This document shows positions 2,419 to 56,803 of a stretch of 64,000 nucleotides of DNA, one piece after another. The notes beneath the pieces were generated by a model. It saw only the letters and a list, made by a program, of their open reading frames with translations. It was not told the DNA's origin and ran no database searches. The stretch lies in the NCBI GenBank assembly GCA_905205665.1, contig CAJLEF010000005.1, positions 25,266 through 89,265 of the forward strand, given 5' to 3'. This stretch comes from an uncultured Bacillota bacterium (GTDB lineage Bacteria > Bacillota_I > Bacilli_A > RF39 > UBA660). Made by a program: the position numbers and the translations under genes. How positions within the stretch are numbered: the stretch's first letter is position 1; each line of letters begins with the position of its first letter.

Positions 2419-3693
2419 ATGTTTGTGGATATTGTAAAAATGAAATTAATTGCTGGCAAAGGAGGAGATGGATGTACCTCTTTTCGAAGAGAAAAATATA
2501 TTCCTATGGGAGGACCGGATGGCGGTTCTGGTGGCAAGGGAGGCGACATCGTCTTTGTATGTGATGAAAGCCTAAAAACTCTAGTTGATTTAAAATATCA
2601 TAAAATCGTGAAAGCAACTAAGGGTGAAAATGGTAAAGGCAAAAATAGACGTGGTGCTAATGCGGAAGATATTATTATTAAAGTACCCGTTGGCACGACT
2701 ATTTTTGATGATGATACAGGTTTAGTAATTGCTGATTTATTAGAAGATAAAGAAGAAGTTATTGTTGCCCATGGAGGCCGTGGGGGAAGAGGAAATACCG
2801 CTTTTGCTACTCATGAAAAACCTGCTCCAGAATTTTCAGAATTAGGAGAACCTGGTGAAATCCGTTATATTAAGTGTGAATTAAAACTTTTGGCAGATGT
2901 CGGACTTGTTGGTATGCCAAGTGTTGGTAAAAGCACTATTTTAAATGCCGTTACAAGTGCGAATCCTAAGATTGCTAGCTATCACTTTACAACATTAAGT
3001 CCTAACTTAGGTGTGGTTACTTTAAAAGACAAATCTTCTTTTGTTTTAGCTGATCTACCAGGTATGATTGAAGGAGCTAGTAAAGGAGTAGGACTTGGAC
3101 TTGACTTTCTAAGACATGCTTCTCGTTGCCTTATTTTAGCTCATGTGATTGATATGGGAAGTGAAGAAGGTAGAAATCCTATTTCGGATTATGAAATTAT
3201 TCGTAAGGAAATCGTGAGTTATAGCGATGCTTTAGCCAATAAAAAAGAAATTATTTTAGCTAACAAAAAAGATTTACCCACTTATGAGGAAAATCTAAAG
3301 AAATTTAAAGCAAAATATCCTGATAAAGACATCTTTGAAATAAGTGGCCTTACTCATGAAGGTTTAGATGAATTAATGCTTTATTTAAAAAAGACAATTG
3401 ATACTTTACCTAAAAGCGAAGTTTATAAAAATGATGATTTTGAATCTACCGTGATTTATCGTTTTAAAAATGAAAAACCATACACCATTACTAAAGAAGA
3501 TGGCATATGGGTTATTCGAGGCGAAGAAATTGCTAAATTATTCCAAATGACTCGTTTTGAAGAAAAAGAAGCTGTTTTACGGTTTGGACGTAAATTAAAA
3601 GGCATGGGGATTGATGATGAATTAGAACGTCTAGGAGCCAAAAGAGGCGACGAAGTTCAAATCATGGATTATATTTTTGAATTTAAGGAATAA
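2419..3693 (+). CDS. obg: GTPase Obg (CgtA).
   Basis: N-terminal MFVDIVK...GGDGG glycine-rich Obg fold, with G motifs GMPSVGKST, DLPG and NKKD. Confidence 0.9.
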   Translation: MFVDIVKMKLIAGKGGDGCTSFRREKYIPMGGPDGGSGGKGGDIVFVCDESLKTLVDLKYHKIVKATKGENGKGKNRRGANAEDIIIKVPVGTTIFDDDTGLVIADLLEDKEEVIVAHGGRGGRGNTAFATHEKPAPEFSELGEPGEIRYIKCELKLLADVGLVGMPSVGKSTILNAVTSANPKIASYHFTTLSPNLGVVTLKDKSSFVLADLPGMIEGASKGVGLGLDFLRHASRCLILAHVIDMGSEEGRNPISDYEIIRKEIVSYSDALANKKEIILANKKDLPTYEENLKKFKAKYPDKDIFEISGLTHEGLDELMLYLKKTIDTLPKSEVYKNDDFESTVIYRFKNEKPYTITKEDGIWVIRGEEIAKLFQMTRFEEKEAVLRFGRKLKGMGIDDELERLGAKRGDEVQIMDYIFEFKE

Positions 3694-21175: not shown

Positions 21176-22074
21176 GCATGAGGGTGAAAAGAGTCATATT
21201 CCTCTTTATTTTTAACCGATGTAAAATGCGTATATATCTCCGTAGTAGTAATACTACTGTGGCCTAAAAATGTCTGGATAACACGTAAATTGGCCCCATT
21301 TAAAAGAAGATGGGTAGCAAAAGAATGACGTAACATATGAGGATTTACTTGTCTTTCAATTGTTTTTAAAGAGATTTCTCCTAATAATTTATTCATTCCT
21401 TGTCTTGTGATAGGAGTTCCACGGTTATTTAAAAATAATTCGTCGTAATTTTTATCTTTCTTTTTAAGTTTAGAACGATAGTTATCTAAATATAATTTTA
21501 AGTAATAAAGCGAAGTTTCATTTAAGGGAACAATTCTTTCTTTTTGCCCTTTTCCTTCAATACGTAGCCATTCATTTTGAAAATCAATATTTTTATCTTT
21601 TAAAGAAACAAGTTCACTAATACGAAGTCCTGTAGCGTATAAAACTTCTAACATAGCTTTTGTTCGGTAGTCATATACAGTTTTTAAAGGAAAATTTAGT
21701 AATTTATCTACCTCTTCATATGTTAAATAATTAGGAGACTTTTCATTTACTTTAGGAAAAGGTATTTGTTTGCATGGATTATGTTCGGTATCTTTATCTT
21801 CATTTAAAAAAGTGTAAAATCCTTTTAAAGTAGAAAGATAATGAGAATGGGTTCGAACATTATTTCCTTTTGTTTTTAGAAAGTTAATAATATCTTTTTC
21901 TTCTAATTTTAAAGAGGAAGAACAAGGACCAAAAAATTTTAAAAATTCTTCTAAGTCATTAGCATAAGATTTTAATGTGTTATCGCTTAACTTTTTTTCG
22001 TATTTTAAATAATCCAAATAATTTGTAATTTCGTGTTCCATATTTATCACAAGATAAGTATAAAGTCTTTTCAA
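21166..22074 (-). CDS. Tyrosine recombinase XerC/XerD family.
   Basis: C-terminal HSFATHLL...LGHSSITTTEIYTH catalytic R-H-R-Y region. Confidence 0.8.
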   Translation of the reverse strand: MKRLYTYLVINMEHEITNYLDYLKYEKKLSDNTLKSYANDLEEFLKFFGPCSSSLKLEEKDIINFLKTKGNNVRTHSHYLSTLKGFYTFLNEDKDTEHNPCKQIPFPKVNEKSPNYLTYEEVDKLLNFPLKTVYDYRTKAMLEVLYATGLRISELVSLKDKNIDFQNEWLRIEGKGQKERIVPLNETSLYYLKLYLDNYRSKLKKKDKNYDELFLNNRGTPITRQGMNKLLGEISLKTIERQVNPHMLRHSFATHLLLNGANLRVIQTFLGHSSITTTEIYTHFTSVKNKEEYDSFHPHAKK

Positions 22075-22114
22075 AAGGTTGTCAAACTGATATACTTAAC
22101 AAAGGTGATATATA

Positions 22115-23310
22115 TGGAAATATTAGCAAATCAGATGCGGCCAACAACTTTAAAAGAAGTCATTGGTCAAACACATCTTGTCGGAGAAAATAAGATTATA
22201 ACCAATTTAGTAAAAAATAAACATTTATGTTCGATGATTTTATATGGCCGTCCTGGTATTGGCAAAACCTCAATTGCTAATGCCATTGTTCATGATTTAA
22301 AAATGCCTTATAGATTTTTAAATGCAACTATGAATAATAAAAGTGATTTTGATATAGCTATTGAAGAAGCCAAAATGCATGGTAATTTAATTTTAATTGT
22401 TGATGAAATACATCGTATGAACAAAGATAAACAAGATATTTTATTACCCCATATTGAATCTGGCTTAATTACTTTAATTGGTCTTACTACTTCGAATCCT
22501 TACCATAAAATTAATCCGGCTATTAGAAGTCGTGTGCAAATTTTTGAACTTCATGATTTAACAAAAGAAGATATTATAGTAGGCCTTAAAAGAGCCGTGA
22601 CTAAATTAGAAGGTTGCCAAATTGAAGATGACGCCCTTTCCTATATTGCTACCTACTCAAGTGGCGATGTAAGAAGTGCTCTAAATTTATTAGAAACAGC
22701 TTATTATGCTTCTAGTGATCATCATTTAACGCTTGAATTATTAAAGAATATTCAAAGTAAGCCAGTCTTTTTTCATGATAAAAACGAAGATGGTCATTAT
22801 GACGTGCTATCAGCCTTTCAAAAATCGATCAGGGGAAGCGATGTGGATGCTGCCTTACACTATCTTGCTCGTTTAATTGAGGCAGGTGACTTAGATAGTA
22901 TTTATAGACGTATGAGTGTAATTGCTTATGAAGATATTGGCCTTGCTAATCCTTCCATTGGTCCTAAAGTAATGGCAGCTATTTCCGCCGCAGAATTAGT
23001 TGGCCTTCCCGAAGCACGTATTCCTTTAGGCACGGTTATTACAGAGATGGCTTTGTCTCCTAAATCAAATTCGGCTCATGTTGCTTTAGATGAAGCCTTA
23101 AATGACATTAGAAGAGGTTCTACTGGAAATGTTCCGGATCATATTAAAACAAATAGTACAACTTATTTATATCCTCATAATTATAAAAATTCTTATGTAA
23201 AACAAGAGTACTTACCTGCAAATTTAAAAGGAAAAAAATATTATCATCCACGTGATAATAAATATGAAAACAATTTAAATAAACTTTGGCATGAAATGAA
23301 GGGAGAATAA
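22115..23310 (+). CDS. rarA: Recombination factor RarA/MgsA AAA+ ATPase.
   Basis: Walker A GRPGIGKTS and Walker B LIVDEIHR. An AAAGGTGA ribosome-binding site precedes the ATG at 22115. Confidence 0.85.
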
Positions 23311-23311
23311 A

Positions 23312-24196
23312 ATGAATAAGATCTTACTTGTTGGCGATGGGGCTTTTTCTAAAGCACTGTACAAAGTTTTAACAGAAAATGAAGAAAATGAACTCACTAT
23401 GTGGAGTCCTAACACCCATTTTAAAAAGAAAAAATTAAATATGACATATGCTTTAGATGATGCTATCCAAAATAATGATTTTATCTTCATTTTAGTAAGT
23501 ACACCTTATTTAGAAAAGATATTAGAGCAAGTATTAAAAAATGATTTAACAAACAAAATTTTGCTTGTTGGAACAAAAGGTCTTCTACCTAAAAAGCCTT
23601 ATTTTATAAGTGAATATTTAGATAATAAAAAAATTGCTTATTCTATTTTTGGTGGTCCTAATTTAGCTAAAGAGTTAGAAAAAATGTCCCCTACTTCGAT
23701 CACTTTTTCAACGAATAGTTTGGTAAGAAAAAGTGAAATATCATCTTTATGGCCATCATTTATCAAACCTATCTTTATAACAAAAGCAATTTCTTTGGAA
23801 ATATGTAATAATTTAAAAAATATCTATGCGATAGGAGCAGGGATGATAAACTCTTTATATCCTTTTCAAAATACTCATTTTACCTATTTAAATGAAGTGA
23901 TTAAAGAACTTCAAAGTTTGCTAGGTGAAGATATTTATCCTTTCTTAGGTGATTTACTTCTTACTTGTTCTATGAATGACTCTAGAAATTTCACTTATGG
24001 AACCTTAATGAATGAGGAAAATAAAAGAAAAAAATACCTTCTTAAAAATACAGTGGAAGGTTTAGCTAATTTGGAAACAATTAATTTTATTTTAAAAAAT
24101 AAAAAGATAACATTACCTATTTTTGAAGGAATCTATGAAAGTTTATCTTTAAATAAAGTTTCAGACAAATTAAAAGAAGCTATTTTTCATAATTGA
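23312..24196 (+). CDS. GpsA-like NAD(P)-binding Rossmann protein with a degenerate dinucleotide motif.
   Basis: The N-terminus ILLVGDGAFSKALYKVL...LTMWS parallels the GpsA pattern I-VLGAGSWGTALA...VTLW, but the GxGxxG motif is degraded. Confidence 0.3.
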   Translation: MNKILLVGDGAFSKALYKVLTENEENELTMWSPNTHFKKKKLNMTYALDDAIQNNDFIFILVSTPYLEKILEQVLKNDLTNKILLVGTKGLLPKKPYFISEYLDNKKIAYSIFGGPNLAKELEKMSPTSITFSTNSLVRKSEISSLWPSFIKPIFITKAISLEICNNLKNIYAIGAGMINSLYPFQNTHFTYLNEVIKELQSLLGEDIYPFLGDLLLTCSMNDSRNFTYGTLMNEENKRKKYLLKNTVEGLANLETINFILKNKKITLPIFEGIYESLSLNKVSDKLKEAIFHN

Positions 24197-24869
24197 TAGC
24201 TTCTTTTTTAATATCATTAATAACGTAACTAGACATCATCGCTCCCGCAGCCATAGGTACGGCACAAATAGTACCTAAAAGAGCTTGATGTTTAGGAACT
24301 TCTAAACTGCAGACACACATAGATTTCATAGCTTTAGGATTTTTACTTAGTTTATTACGAATTTTTTTAGCTAAAGGGTCACTTTGCGTGTTTTTAAGAG
24401 GGACAATTTGTAACATTTCAGGATGAGTTTTATTAGCTGTCCCCATACAAGTAATAAGTTTTATTTTTTCCCTACTACATACTTCAATGAGTTTTATTTT
24501 TACGGGTACACAGTCACAAGCATCTAAAACATAGTCATAATTAGTCAAAAATTCTTTATTAATATCTTCTTCCGTTAATTCTTTTTTTATCTTTGTGACA
24601 AGTGTATTTGAAGGAATTAAAGTGGCTCTTTTAAAGGCTGCTTCGACTTTATTTGTACCGATCGTTTCTGTTGTCGCATAAATCTGACGATTTAAATTAG
24701 TAATATCAAAAACATCTTTGTCTACGACTGTTATTTCTTTAAAACCAGTTCTAAGAAGAGATTCAAAAGTATATCCGCCCACTCCACCTAAACCAATTAA
24801 TAAAACTTTTGTATCTTTTATTTTATTTATAACATTTTCTTCTAATAGTCTTTCAATTCTTTCAAACAT
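24180..24869 (-). CDS. tcdA: ThiF/MoeB-family protein, tRNA threonylcarbamoyladenosine dehydratase (TcdA/CsdL)-like.
   Basis: LIGLGGVGGY nucleotide-binding motif in a TcdA-sized (229-aa) protein. Confidence 0.6.
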   Translation of the reverse strand: MFERIERLLEENVINKIKDTKVLLIGLGGVGGYTFESLLRTGFKEITVVDKDVFDITNLNRQIYATTETIGTNKVEAAFKRATLIPSNTLVTKIKKELTEEDINKEFLTNYDYVLDACDCVPVKIKLIEVCSREKIKLITCMGTANKTHPEMLQIVPLKNTQSDPLAKKIRNKLSKNPKAMKSMCVCSLEVPKHQALLGTICAVPMAAGAMMSSYVINDIKKEAINYEK

Positions 24870-24891
24870 AACATCACAACCTTTATTTCAT

Positions 24892-25063
24892 AAAAAAACC
24901 AAATGTAAGTCAGCGTGATAAAATCCCCGCTTTCTCGCAGGTGGGCATCTCTCTTACATTTTAGGATCCTAATACACTTAATGGATTAGTTTTCTACACC
25001 ATGTAAGGTTCTGATTCCCGTATATCACCATAGTCGGTTTTATGTAACTATCTTACACTTGGT
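24892..25063 (-). ncRNA. Putative roughly 170-nt structured leader/attenuator RNA ending in an intrinsic terminator 23 nt before the tcdA start.
   Basis: A consensus promoter lies upstream (see the next feature). The terminator has a 9-bp stem AAATGTAAG(24901-09)/CTTACATTT(24953-61) followed by a U-run on the minus strand (24892-98). Heptamer copies at 25000-08 and 25052-58 can form alternative helices. GC content is higher than in the flanking intergenic DNA. Confidence 0.45.
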
Positions 25064-25069
25064 AATTAA

Positions 25070-25098
25070 ATTATACAATAAAATGCATATACACGCAA
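25070..25098 (-). promoter_or_regulatory. Consensus sigma-A-type promoter driving the minus-strand leader.
   Basis: On the minus strand: TTGCGT (25098-25093), a 17-nt spacer, then TATAAT (25075-25070). Confidence 0.55.
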
Positions 25099-25250
25099 TG
25101 ATATTTACAAAATATTTACATTGCACTCTTTCTTTTTAATATCATTCTCTTCATCAAAAATTTAGAAGGCTATTCATAAGATATAACTGAATGGTAATAA
25201 ATCCAAGATAACTATTTGGTTATATGAAAAAATGGTATTGGGTGATATAG

Positions 25251-25484
25251 TTGAATATAGATAGATTAAAAGAAATTAGACAAGATCGTGATTTACAACA
25301 AATTGATATTGCTAAAGTTTTGAAAACAAGTCAAGTGCAATATTCAAGATATGAACGCGGTATCAGAGTCATGCCGGTTGATAAAATTGCCAAACTTGCT
25401 AAATTCTATGATGTCAGTATTGATTATTTATTAGGACTTACTGATATCCGCAAACCTTATCCTAAATCAAAAATTAATTCTTAA
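25251..25484 (+). CDS. Small XRE-family HTH protein (77 aa).
   Basis: HTH segment DIAKVLKTSQVQYSRYERG. TTG start with a GGGTGA ribosome-binding site. Confidence 0.65.
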   Translation: MNIDRLKEIRQDRDLQQIDIAKVLKTSQVQYSRYERGIRVMPVDKIAKLAKFYDVSIDYLLGLTDIRKPYPKSKINS

Positions 25485-32037: not shown

Positions 32038-32260
32038 AAAAAAACCTAAGTAATTTTATAAGGACGACTTAAAAAGCCGCGGTGCCACCTTATTTTACCT
32101 AGGTACTCTCAAAAATAGTTTTATCGGTTCAACCGTTTTAAGGATATAAAGAGTCGTTTTTCAAAAAGCATTATAAAAGCATTTACACCCACTAGCTCTC
32201 TCTTTGTTATAAATATACTTTTCTACTCGTCTCTTTCTTAAAAGACCTCTTTTATTTTAA
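32038..32260 (-). promoter_or_regulatory. T-box riboswitch leader upstream of asnS.
   Basis: The minus strand carries AAUAAGGUGGCACCGCGG, matching the T-box consensus AAUUAGGGUGGUACCGCGG. The terminator helix is CCUAGGUAA...UUACUUAGG (32045-32103) followed by a U-run (32038-44). AGAGA and GGUGUAA elements are present. A promoter TTGACG(32283-78)-18 nt-TAAAAT(32259-54) lies on the minus strand. Confidence 0.65.
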
Positions 32261-41426: not shown

Positions 41427-41993
41427 AAATAATTTCTTTCCTCTCTTCAACTTCTCAGTCCTTAAAAGGCAAAAATCAAGATTAAAATAAATGAATTAAA
41501 CTTTTTTATTATAATGATTAACTGCAAAATACATACATAAATCAATGAAGAAAATTTCCCAAATTATTTTTTTCTAAATATATTCTAAATCTGAAAACAT
41601 GTTTTTTTATTTGATGTAATGGTACTTTAGATGACAATTGATTATTATTTCAAAAATGATGATTTTAATATTCTCATGGATGACTAACTTAAATCTTTAA
41701 ATGTTAATTTTACCCTCATTTTGAATATTCAAATTTAATTATTTATTTTCAACTATTAACGCCTTTCTAACAAAAAAGAATGATCCATCCAAAGGAGTCA
41801 AAGTTTGACGGTACCATCCTTATTTTTTCTCTTTCTTGATAAAGGAGACATCTCCTACATGCATTTGTTAACAACCTTCTAAAATAAATTTTGTTTATTT
41901 ACACCAACCATAAACTCTCTTTAAAAAATTTATTTTATACTCCTTTAACTTCTTCGCATTTCTTAAATATCATACCAGTATATTTTCTAAAAA

Positions 41994-56607: not shown

Positions 56608-56683
56608 GTCTCCATAGCTCAGTTGGTAGAGCAACTGACTCTTAATCAGTGGGTCCACGGTTCGAGCCCGTGTGGGGACACCA
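56608..56683 (+). tRNA. tRNA-Lys (anticodon CUU).
   Basis: Manual cloverleaf. Acceptor GTCTCCA/TGGGGAC, D arm GCTC-AGTTGGTA-GAGC, anticodon stem ACTGA/TCAGT with loop CTCTTAA, T arm CACGG-TTCGAGC-CCGTG, encoded CCA. Confidence 0.8.
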
Positions 56684-56727: not shown

Positions 56728-56803
56728 TACCCTGTCGCCAAGTGGTAAGGCAATGGGCTCTGACCCCATCATTTCGCCGGTTCGAATCCAGCCAGGGTAG
56801 CCA
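56728..56803 (+). tRNA. tRNA-Gln (anticodon CUG).
   Basis: Manual cloverleaf. U1:A72 acceptor TACCCTG/CAGGGTA, typical of bacterial tRNA-Gln. Anticodon stem ATGGG/CCCAT with loop CTCTGAC. T loop TTCGAAT with one C-A mismatch in the T stem. Encoded CCA. Confidence 0.7.

Follow-up and report, generated by a model that had tools for sequence, protein, structure and literature searches.

Small 6S RNAs, present in almost every bacterium, imitate an open promoter and sequester RNA polymerase. In E. coli, the 6S gene ssrS and the open reading frame ygfA form a co-transcript. The two genes adjoin each other (PMC9130861). In the E. coli-type RNA the 3' bubble is unstructured, and a 9-bp release hairpin appears only once the P2 helix has come apart, while the 6S-1 subtype of Bacillus subtilis is defined by P2, a pre-formed 3' hairpin and a collapse helix (CBCH) (PMC8876501). 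The pRNA templated on B. subtilis 6S-1 is GUUCGGUCAAAACU (PMC12005410), and recovery with sigma-A from this bacterium included 6S-1 extended into the sequence of the yrvM gene (PMC11077062). In the Lactobacillales, the gene rarA adjoins 6S (PMC8414754).

The window analyzed here is a 64,000-nucleotide stretch from an uncultured gut Bacilli bacterium. The element upstream of its tcdA gene is very probably a 6S RNA gene (ssrS) of the B. subtilis 6S-1, or bsrA, type. It is an additional, divergent member of a family that has itself long been known, and the biological result is an ordinary one, a 6S RNA at the gene position of B. subtilis 6S-1. The original prediction had leaned toward an undescribed cis-regulatory RNA, which gives way to a known RNA now that Rfam identifies the element as RF00013; its fallback of an independent small RNA was correct.

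The match to RF00013 (6S/SsrS) covers 24892-25068 of the minus strand and model positions 1-187, that is, the full length of the model. Its 39.0 bits lie under the gathering score of 46.4 bits, which is an operational cut-off and no biological property; the E-value is 1.7e-6 in a 501-nt search and 2e-4 in a search of 64 kb. Because the window copy scores below the gathering score, a default Rfam scan of the 64-kb window returned two tRNAs only, and the 6S RNA became visible once E-value reporting was used. Of the 40 loci with an orthologue that were scanned, 10 have one that reaches the gathering score at the matching position before tcdA (L005, L006, L008, L009, L021, L022, L023, L032, L035 and L049; 47.0-57.5 bits). 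These ten orthologues make the window RNA kin to threshold-passing sequences, being tied to it by nhmmer (E 1e-25 to 1e-3) and by R1, a covariance model built in the present analysis (81-184 bits).

The homologous element is widespread at tcdA loci of related uncultured gut Bacilli. With the window element as query, nhmmer found plus-strand matches in 61 of 79 tcdA loci, directly upstream of tcdA in all of them but one (L062), and R1 found the element in 63 of the 79 (75-202 bits). In the window R1 finds one copy, at 24889-25070, with 196.4 bits. A stricter E-value, with antisense matches kept out, gave the 60-sequence alignment (A4) used for the comparisons below. Linkage to tcdA is not universal: in 16 of the 79 loci there is no such element within 3 kb of tcdA, and neither Rfam at its gathering score nor R1 with filters off found a divergent 6S RNA there. 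The features of the locus are collected in Table 1.

Table 1. Coordinates of the 6S RNA gene, its parts and its neighbors in the window (position 1 is the first nucleotide of the window)
Feature	Position	Strand	Remarks
rarA/MgsA	22033-23310	+	1.6 kb from the 6S gene
tcdA/yrvM-like ThiF-family gene	24180-24869	−	ATG at 24869; outside the RNA
tcdA ribosome-binding site AAAGG	24884-24880	−	
6S RNA gene (ssrS/bsrA-type)	24892-25063	−	about 172 nt; inferred start A25063 to end of U-run
U-run of putative intrinsic terminator	24892-24898	−	up to seven U, after arm D and GG
−35 box TTGCGT	25093-25098	−	TTG kept in homologues
−10 box TATAAT	25070-25075	−	consensus; 17-nt spacer to −35
Arm A GUGUAAG	25058-25052	−	
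Arm B CUUACAU	25007-25001	−	
Arm C AAAUGUAAG	24961-24953	−	
Arm D CUUACAUUU	24909-24901	−	
Closing stem, 5' strand ACCAAGUGUAAG	25052-25063	−	contains arm A; helices 1-2, compensatory changes
Closing stem, 3' strand CUUACAUUUGGU	24898-24909	−	contains arm D
P2 helix, 5' strand AUAAAACC	25036-25043	−	part of predicted pRNA template; nearly invariant
P2 helix, 3' strand GG(A)UUUUAU	24918-24926	−	
5' central bubble GACUAUGGUGAUAUAC	25020-25035	−	
Collapse helix (CBCH), 5' strand GUGAUA	25023-25028	−	pairs with UAUCAC
Collapse helix (CBCH), 3' strand UAUCAC	24915-24920	−	overlaps P2 3' strand
3' central-bubble hairpin CCUGC-GAGAAA-GCGGG	24926-24941	−	helix 11; 5 bp; 97.8% paired
Helix GGGAAUC (25019-25013) with GAUGCCC (24949-24943)	24943-25019	−	bounds bubble apically; helices 6-7, 99-100% paired
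Internal (apical) arm	24953-25007	−	B:C stem CUUACAU (25007-25001) with AUGUAAG (24959-24953), apical stem-loop; helices 8-10

The putative promoter of the 6S gene had been called a perfect sigma-A promoter. Both boxes and the spacer are present as described and the −10 box is consensus, but the −35 box matches TTGACA at three of six positions, which makes "perfect" an overstatement. With so partial a −35 match, a generic promoter and terminator scan of the window did not list the 6S promoter; it did not list the long-loop terminator either, and picked up the small 3'-bubble hairpin alone. TTG-N17-19-TATAAT recurs in almost all of 59 homologous loci, at a matching distance from the 5' end of the RNA, with an extended −10 of TGNTATAAT in most homologues and TTGTATAAT in the clade of the window. 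We infer the exact 5' and 3' ends of the transcript from the sequence. At the 3' end, the closing stem and U-run would also be the intrinsic terminator, and the whole rod would act as the terminator hairpin, since the 3' strand of the closing stem abuts the U-run. A run of at least four T stands behind the closing stem in the listed homologues, as read by eye and not tallied by script. The predicted sigma-A-driven transcript of about 170 nt, with its stem and U-run 22-23 nt before tcdA, is thus borne out as far as promoter and terminator are kept in the homologues.

The window RNA has the 6S rod form, about 150-200 nt long, with its two ends paired in a closing stem and a loop-capped internal stem beyond a large central bubble. 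The minimum free energy (MFE) of a 181-nt RNA is −48.2 kcal/mol (z = −4.24), none of 200 shuffles was as good, and the MFE structure is a single nested rod in which A pairs with D and B with C. All 60 homologues have the terminal closing stem in their MFE folds (median for A:D, −11.9 kcal/mol). In the 60-sequence alignment, which was fitted to the model structure and favors it, 93.6% of the cells are paired, 40 of the 51 pairs show compensatory changes, and the covariation score is 0.437, compared with 0.04-0.065 in slid controls and with 500 shuffles of which none reached that value. Structure-blind alignment with MAFFT followed by RNAalifold recovered the internal stems, with compensatory changes in 11 of 22 pairs. 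On this plain alignment the closing stem was missed because indels misalign it, and realignment with the covariance model recovered it.

Some elements of the rod are held by sequence and others by covariation. P2 is 96.9% paired and shows no covariation since both of its strands are nearly invariant. A fold constrained to contain P2 leaves 16 nt in the 5' side of the bubble and a hairpin in its 3' side. For the free RNA, the ViennaRNA MFE is a "collapsed" form of −47.8 kcal/mol, compared with −43.8 for the open-bubble form with P2; the open-bubble form is therefore best called a proposed one, by analogy and from the conservation of P2. The collapse helix (helix 5) is 95% paired with compensatory changes in six of six pairs, occurring as GUGAUA:UAUCAC, GGAUA:UAUCC, UUGAUA:UAUCAA and ACGAU:AUCGU. 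The potential for alternative pairing between P2 and the collapse helix is thus itself conserved. The hairpin of the 3' bubble, noticed earlier as a 5-bp GC hairpin with a GAGAAA loop, keeps the base of its stem (CCUG/CGGG) among the homologues and varies in its interior. P2, the pre-formed 3' hairpin and the collapse helix, the defining features of the 6S-1 subtype (PMC8876501), are therefore all found in the homologues.

The most conserved sequences lie in and around the central bubble: the template region, the −10-like 3' bubble and the GGG/CCC at the border of the bubble. The template region AAAACCGACUA is invariant among the homologues, and AUAAAACCGACUA on the 5' side and CCCACCUG...CGGG(N)UUUUAUC on the 3' side are nearly so. 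In contrast to the variable stems, AAAACC(G)AC, GGGAAUC, GAUGCCCACCU and GGG-UUUAUC are invariant or nearly so in 54-60 homologues. Across the window, RTGTAAG heptamers are no more frequent than expected (14 matches, 15.7 expected); four of the 14 matches cluster within 156 nt because the arms are the strands of two helices that are similar in sequence.

The same four arms had been taken for an attenuator or riboswitch-like leader of tcdA, with mutually exclusive helices A:B, B:C and C:D in a 1:2, 2:3, 3:4 logic and a signal choosing between a C:D terminator and a B:C antiterminator. The arms and the U-run exist, the window sequence can form A:B (−7.4 kcal/mol) and C:D (−8.7), and the element ends 22 nt before tcdA with a short gap in 52 of 59 loci, so that tcdA transcription must run through it. 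The pairings A:B and C:D were tested explicitly, however, and did no better than shuffled controls: across the 60 homologues they are 59.2% paired (shuffles, 55.5%) with a covariation of 0.218 (shuffles, 0.187). Nested A:D and B:C are 88.8% paired with a covariation of 0.755. C:D is at or below −8 kcal/mol in 2 of the 60 homologues and A:B at or below −6 in 1, and a locus whose TcdA is 97% identical (L004) has already lost C:D (−2.5). Nor is C:D placed as a terminator stem would be, since a 2-nt gap separates it from the U-run, whereas A:D abuts it. As the original prediction itself had noted, there is no leader peptide or known aptamer: no small conserved open reading frame was found, and Rfam gave no aptamer or T-box family match at 24800-25300 with E up to 10. 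The unpaired stretches that are conserved correspond to the 6S bubble. Against the attenuator also stand an open reading frame between RNA and tcdA in L062 and L073, the 16 tcdA loci without the element, and orthologues that are Rfam-grade 6S RNAs. Covariation of the arms and an Rfam search were the checks proposed at the outset; the first found none above shuffles and the second a known RNA, which refutes the attenuator and leaves it with next to no probability. Very unlikely, too, is a rod-shaped sRNA of another kind or palindromic DNA, such as a repeat or MITE-like hairpin, whose likeness to 6S RNA would be superficial only. The window copy does fall under the Rfam gathering score, and long hairpins draw partial covariance-model scores on both strands (antisense, 26-51 bits with R1). 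However, the Rfam 6S alignment is full-length and ten orthologues exceed the gathering score, R1 gives 196 bits on the sense strand and 38 on the antisense, and a palindrome or other rod was rejected on the strand asymmetry and the threshold-passing orthologues. G:U pairs, promoter and U-run also fix one strand; such pairs are frequent in the 60-homologue alignment, which fits an RNA read from the minus strand of the window and not a DNA palindrome. The element is single-copy in the window and syntenic with B. subtilis 6S-1, and its most conserved part is a single-stranded bubble, which a DNA palindrome leaves unexplained.

A genuine 6S RNA could still have a second function toward its neighbor. 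Among NCBIfam models the tcdA product matches TcdA best, with 128 bits, a score short of the equivalog cut-off. This gene directly follows the RNA, with rarA nearby, and upstream of the RNA is a divergent XRE-family gene. From the U-run to the tcdA start there are 22-23 nt, and the gap (22 nt, with the ribosome-binding site inside) holds no promoter-like site. A separate tcdA promoter would not fit there, so tcdA is probably transcribed by polymerase reading through the 6S terminator. It is an even bet whether the locus is dual in function, with the closing-stem terminator as a tuned leaky gate that links tcdA, and so ct6A tRNA modification, to the 6S promoter, or with the 6S RNA processed from a co-transcript. 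In 52 of 59 loci, 8-34 nt separate 6S from tcdA, the adjacency has been maintained from B. subtilis to reduced gut Bacilli, and ssrS–ygfA of E. coli offers a precedent for co-transcription of 6S RNA and an open reading frame. The B. subtilis 6S-1 species extended into yrvM and recovered with sigma-A (PMC11077062) points the same way. On the other side, three loci (L055, L057 and L060) have a TATAAT-like box in the interval from 6S to tcdA, which suggests that an independent tcdA promoter is possible, 16 tcdA loci exist without 6S, and the two genes may be neighbors simply by inheritance, without any bearing on regulation. Going further, the 6S gene might be the sole promoter-bearing unit before tcdA in this lineage, perhaps in Bacilli including B. 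subtilis bsrA–yrvM, with synthesis of the ct6A enzyme set by the 6S promoter and the leakiness of its terminator; this is a tentative proposal and rather unlikely. If true, it would couple modification of the tRNA anticodon loop to the growth-phase program of 6S RNA, by means of regulated read-through or of a 6S–tcdA co-transcript from which 6S is processed. The tight and widely kept spacing makes the dependence of tcdA on read-through a modest, testable question.

The 6S RNA itself would be expected to work as other members of its family do. The sigma-A promoter would give a transcript of about 172 nt folding into the canonical rod of closing stem, P2, large central bubble with its 3' hairpin, and internal stem with apical loop. 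As an open-promoter mimic, the rod would bind the sigma-A RNA polymerase holoenzyme and damp transcription, chiefly in stationary phase. When nutrients return, the polymerase would template a pRNA on the conserved AAAACCGAC(U) stretch. From the B. subtilis 6S-1 pRNA (PMC12005410) and the hallmarks of lactic acid bacterial pRNAs (PMC8414754), the start is predicted opposite C25033 or U25032, giving 5'-(A)GUCGGUUUUAUG. This pRNA would unzip P2, and the freed 3' strand, UAUCAC, would pair with GUGAUA of the 5' bubble to form the collapse helix; the 3' hairpin would be stabilized and the polymerase would let the 6S RNA go. Polymerase binding and pRNA synthesis are thus attributed to the window RNA by analogy with its family. 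The covariation of the collapse helix adds comparative support to the release mechanism of B. subtilis, which has hitherto drawn mainly on probing and mutagenesis.

The 6S copies of this small-genome clade of uncultured gut Bacilli often fall under the Rfam gathering score, and therefore standard annotation pipelines will overlook them. Alignment A4 and model R1 would recover 6S RNAs overlooked in this way.

Among described systems, the trp leader and T-box resemble the window RNA only in being promoter-proximal structured RNAs with a stem and U-run before an open reading frame and, for this one species, in the four mutually complementary arms. Unlike them, it has no conserved alternative terminator and antiterminator helices, no leader peptide and no aptamer, and its fold is a single nested rod. 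E. coli SsrS is a closer parallel, as the RF00013 alignment covers the full model, the order of the helices agrees, and each RNA is directly followed by a co-oriented protein gene (ygfA in E. coli). The difference is that the window RNA has the small pre-formed hairpin and the collapse helix of the Bacillus type. With the 6S RNAs of lactic acid bacteria it shares a canonical 6S-1-like structure and rarA as a conserved neighbor, although in the window rarA is 1.6 kb away with tcdA between, and uspA was not seen downstream. With U25032 as the start, GG would fall at positions 5/6 of the predicted pRNA and an A directly 3' of the template start, as in lactic acid bacteria. The predicted pRNA lacks their hallmark AA at positions 9/10.

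The closest counterpart is B. subtilis 6S-1, with which the window RNA was compared through Rfam and published descriptions. The sequence has diverged below the Rfam gathering score, and the RNA is shorter (about 172 nt compared with about 190 nt). Its pRNA is predicted to start at about nt 31-32 in place of nt 40, and to continue with U4 where that of B. subtilis has UCA4, so that the AA at positions 9/10 is absent. Upstream, bsrA has aspS as its neighbor and the window RNA the divergent XRE-family gene. In architecture the two agree, each a rod with closing stem, P2, central bubble, pre-formed 3' hairpin and apical arm, and in each the 3' strand of P2 can instead pair with the distal 5' bubble as a collapse helix (PMC8876501). 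Both have the template core ACCGA, and UCGGU is common to the predicted pRNA and GUUCGGUCAAAACU (PMC12005410). Like bsrA, the window 6S gene has a sigma-A-type promoter of its own and lies directly upstream of yrvM/tcdA in the same orientation, with rarA nearby.

The element upstream of tcdA in this uncultured gut Bacilli lineage is, with high confidence, a 6S RNA gene of the Bacillus subtilis 6S-1 type. A default Rfam scan of the window lists two tRNAs only and not this element. With E-value reporting, the 6S/SsrS RNA model RF00013 matches over its full length (positions 1-187) at 24892-25068 on the minus strand, bounds that agree with the extent of the originally predicted transcript. At 39.0 bits the match stays below the family's gathering score, 46.4 (E = 1.7e-6 in a local search, 2e-4 for both strands of the whole 64-kb window). 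The suggestion of an undescribed cis-regulatory RNA falls away, and the RNA is a further member of a family already known.

Reading the minus strand of 24700-25400 recovered the promoter, four complementary arms, U-run, GC hairpin and downstream ATG of the original prediction. Both promoter boxes and their spacing hold, but calling the sigma-A promoter perfect was an overstatement because its -35 box fits the consensus at only half of the positions. The heptamers are not enriched across the whole window (14 matches versus 15.7 expected). The 181-nt RNA is far more stable than its shuffles (-48.2 kcal/mol, z = -4.24), and its minimum free energy (MFE) structure is one nested rod with A:D and B:C paired.

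Features of the 6S RNA locus, in window coordinates
Feature	Position	Strand	Remark
-35 box TTGCGT	25098-25093	-	sequence read; matches consensus at 3/6 positions
-10 box TATAAT	25075-25070	-	sequence read; spacer to -35 = 17 nt
arm A GUGUAAG	25058-25052	-	
arm B CUUACAU	25007-25001	-	
arm C AAAUGUAAG	24961-24953	-	
hairpin CCUGC-GAGAAA-GCGGG	24941-24926	-	
arm D CUUACAUUU	24909-24901	-	
GG then U7, 3' of arm D	U7 at 24898-24892	-	
ThiF-family ORF (tcdA) ATG	24869	-	

The protein encoded downstream is of the ThiF family, with TcdA as its best NCBIfam match, under the equivalog cut-off. An alignment of its homologues led to 79 loci in species-representative genomes, each an uncultured gut 'Bacilli/Tenericutes' MAG (closest TcdA identities 97% and 93%). 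With the window element as query, nhmmer matched the plus strand in 61 of these loci, and in every case but one the match lay directly upstream of tcdA. R1, a covariance model made in this analysis, detects the element in 63 of the 79 loci, where it scores 75-202 bits; the window gives a single hit, at 196 bits. Ten orthologues at the same position pass the Rfam 6S gathering score (L005, L006, L008, L009, L021, L022, L023, L032, L035 and L049; 47.0-57.5 bits). Rfam-grade 6S RNAs and the window copy thus belong to one continuous set of orthologues, in which the window copy scores somewhat lower. Only 10 of the 40 orthologue-bearing loci scanned reach the Rfam cut-off, which is an annotation gap. 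In L008, a DUF3800-VIII RNA motif (RF03075, 59 bits, above gathering score) lies at 2583-2650 (-), about 160 nt upstream of the 6S gene on the opposite strand.

In homologues, 6-7 nt lie between the end of the promoter TTG-N17-(TG)NTATAAT and the ACC at which the closing stem begins, and a T-run follows that stem. The closing stem joins the 5' and 3' ends in the MFE structure of all 60 homologues even as its sequence differs widely. The internal stems also emerge from structure-blind MAFFT with RNAalifold, where 11 of 22 pairs show compensatory changes. In A4, the 60-sequence alignment made with R1, standard pairs make up 93.6% of 2984 cells and 40 of 51 pairs change on both sides; the covariation score of 0.437 compares with 0.04-0.065 when partners are slid and is reached by none of 500 shuffles, a margin that is large even though A4, being fitted to the model, favours the structure, and with which two structure-independent lines concur. 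The nested A:D and B:C pairings are 88.8% paired with covariation of 0.755, and the median A:D duplex energy is -11.9 kcal/mol.

The original prediction had instead read the arms as an attenuator or riboswitch-type leader switching among A:B, B:C and C:D, which is now barely tenable. On A4, A:B and C:D stay close to shuffle level (59.2% versus 55.5% paired; covariation 0.218 versus 0.187). A C:D duplex of -8 kcal/mol or better occurs in only 2 of 60 homologues, the window and L001, and is already lost in L004 (TcdA 97% identical); an A:B duplex of -6 kcal/mol or better occurs in the window only. This '1:2, 2:3, 3:4' potential is thus a species-specific coincidence, arising because the closing and internal stems happen to resemble each other here. 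The predicted terminator survives as stem and U-run, with a different stem: the closing stem takes this part, formed by ACCAAGUGUAAG (25063-25052) and CUUACAUUUGGU (24909-24898), and it abuts the U-run directly, whereas C:D would leave a 2-nt gap. The Rfam-grade orthologues at the same position also speak against a leader, as does an element not tied to tcdA in all loci. An unrelated rod-shaped sRNA or DNA palindrome is very improbable too, given the strand asymmetry (196 bits sense versus 38 antisense), the G:U pairs, a promoter and U-run on one strand, synteny, and orthologues that exceed the Rfam threshold.

The 22 nt from U-run to ATG contain the RBS AAAGG, and a promoter scan found no promoter-like site there, so tcdA transcripts probably arise when polymerase reads through the 6S terminator, as in E. 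coli ssrS-ygfA. In 52 of 59 loci this spacing falls between 8 and 34 nt, and the window clade has no TATAAT-like box in it. A dual role, as 6S RNA and as a gate for read-through into tcdA, would be compatible with the 6S assignment. The element is unlikely to be a tcdA-specific leader, since ORFs intervene in L062 (6S 1139-1326, ORF 1374-2996, 540 aa) and L073 (6S 2265-2454, ORF 2496-2999, 167 aa), so that adjacency can break without loss of the RNA; since L055, L057 and L060 carry a TATAAT-like box in a longer, 26-55 nt spacer after the 6S terminator (about 2945-3000), which suggests that tcdA has its own promoter in these more distant relatives; and since sixteen tcdA loci (L027, L028, L034, L037, L039, L040, L041, L044, L045, L051, L056, L067, L068, L076, L077 and L078; TcdA identity 39-46%) have no 6S detected within 3 kb by Rfam or by R1 with filters off. 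The 6S gene of these sixteen, if it exists, must sit elsewhere in the genome.

The same kind of misreading may have a precedent. Among its candidates, a 2015 structural-entropy riboswitch screen listed a 200-nt segment located 110 nt upstream of yrvM in B. subtilis, at 2813434-2813633 (reverse) (PMC4448311). Judged by its position, this is probably the bsrA/6S-1 gene, in which case a 6S RNA would likewise have been taken for something riboswitch-like. Elsewhere in the window, two RF00230 matches under the gathering score of 93, at 32057-32242 (-) (86.1 bits, E 3e-17) and 41790-41963 (-) (63.6 bits, E 2e-11), are probably genuine but divergent T-box leaders, missed by default annotation like the 6S RNA. 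The two tRNA genes of the default scan, at 56608-56680 (+) and 56728-56800 (+), have 48 nt between them.

The most conserved parts of the RNA are single-stranded stretches and their flanks: AUAAAACCGACUA on the 5' side, CCCACCUG-hairpin-CGGG(N)UUUUAUC on the 3' side, and the bubble-flanking GGGAAUC/GAUGCCC. Of two alternative local folds, the open form (-43.8 kcal/mol) has P2, AUAAAACC:GG(A)UUUUAU, closing a 16-nt 5' bubble that faces a 3' bubble with a small hairpin. The collapsed form is the MFE, at -47.8 kcal/mol; in it GUGAUA (25028-25023) forms a helix with UAUCAC (24920-24915), a segment that shares bases with the P2 3' strand. P2 itself, 96.9% paired, is almost invariant and therefore gives no covariation signal. 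The GUGAUA:UAUCAC helix is 95% paired in A4 with double changes in all six pairs (variants GGAUA:UAUCC, UUGAUA:UAUCAA, ACGAU:AUCGU and AAGAUA:UAUCUU). These folds fit the published B. subtilis 6S-1 model, in which P2 is unwound as the pRNA is made, the free RNA already carries the 3'-bubble hairpin, and the distal 5' bubble joins the 3' strand of P2 in a 'central bubble collapse helix' (PMC8876501). Comparative support for the collapse-helix mechanism is possibly useful, as is the potential dependence of tcdA on 6S read-through; apart from these points and the annotation gap, the locus is of low interest.

By analogy, the window 6S RNA would bind polymerase and template a pRNA. The B. subtilis pRNA is 5'-GUUCGGUCAAAACU (PMC12005410), and the equivalent template in the window RNA, ...AAAACCGACU, predicts 5'-(A)GUCGGUUUUAUG. 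This predicted pRNA lacks the AA at positions 9/10 of lactic acid bacteria and reference 6S RNAs (PMC8414754). If it starts opposite U25032, it shares their GG at positions 5/6 and A beside the start site (PMC8414754), and the UCGGU core of the B. subtilis pRNA.

The genome is tightly packed: the 3' ends of tcdA (-) and the convergent gpsA-like ORF 23312-24196 (+) overlap by 17 nt (24180-24196). A small XRE/RstR-like HTH regulator gene (77 aa, 25251-25484, +) diverges from the 6S promoter across an AT-rich spacer of about 150 nt (25099-25250). In B. subtilis, bsrA has aspS on its 5' side and yrvM, the orthologue of tcdA (PMC5389704), on its 3' side, and 6S-1 keeps its binding to sigma-A holoenzyme when it is extended into the aspS/yrvM mRNAs (PMC11077062). 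The 6S genes of lactic acid bacteria have rarA as a near-universal neighbour (PMC8414754). The window order of 6S, tcdA, gpsA-like gene and rarA/MgsA, all within 3 kb, matches these known Firmicutes 6S-1 loci.
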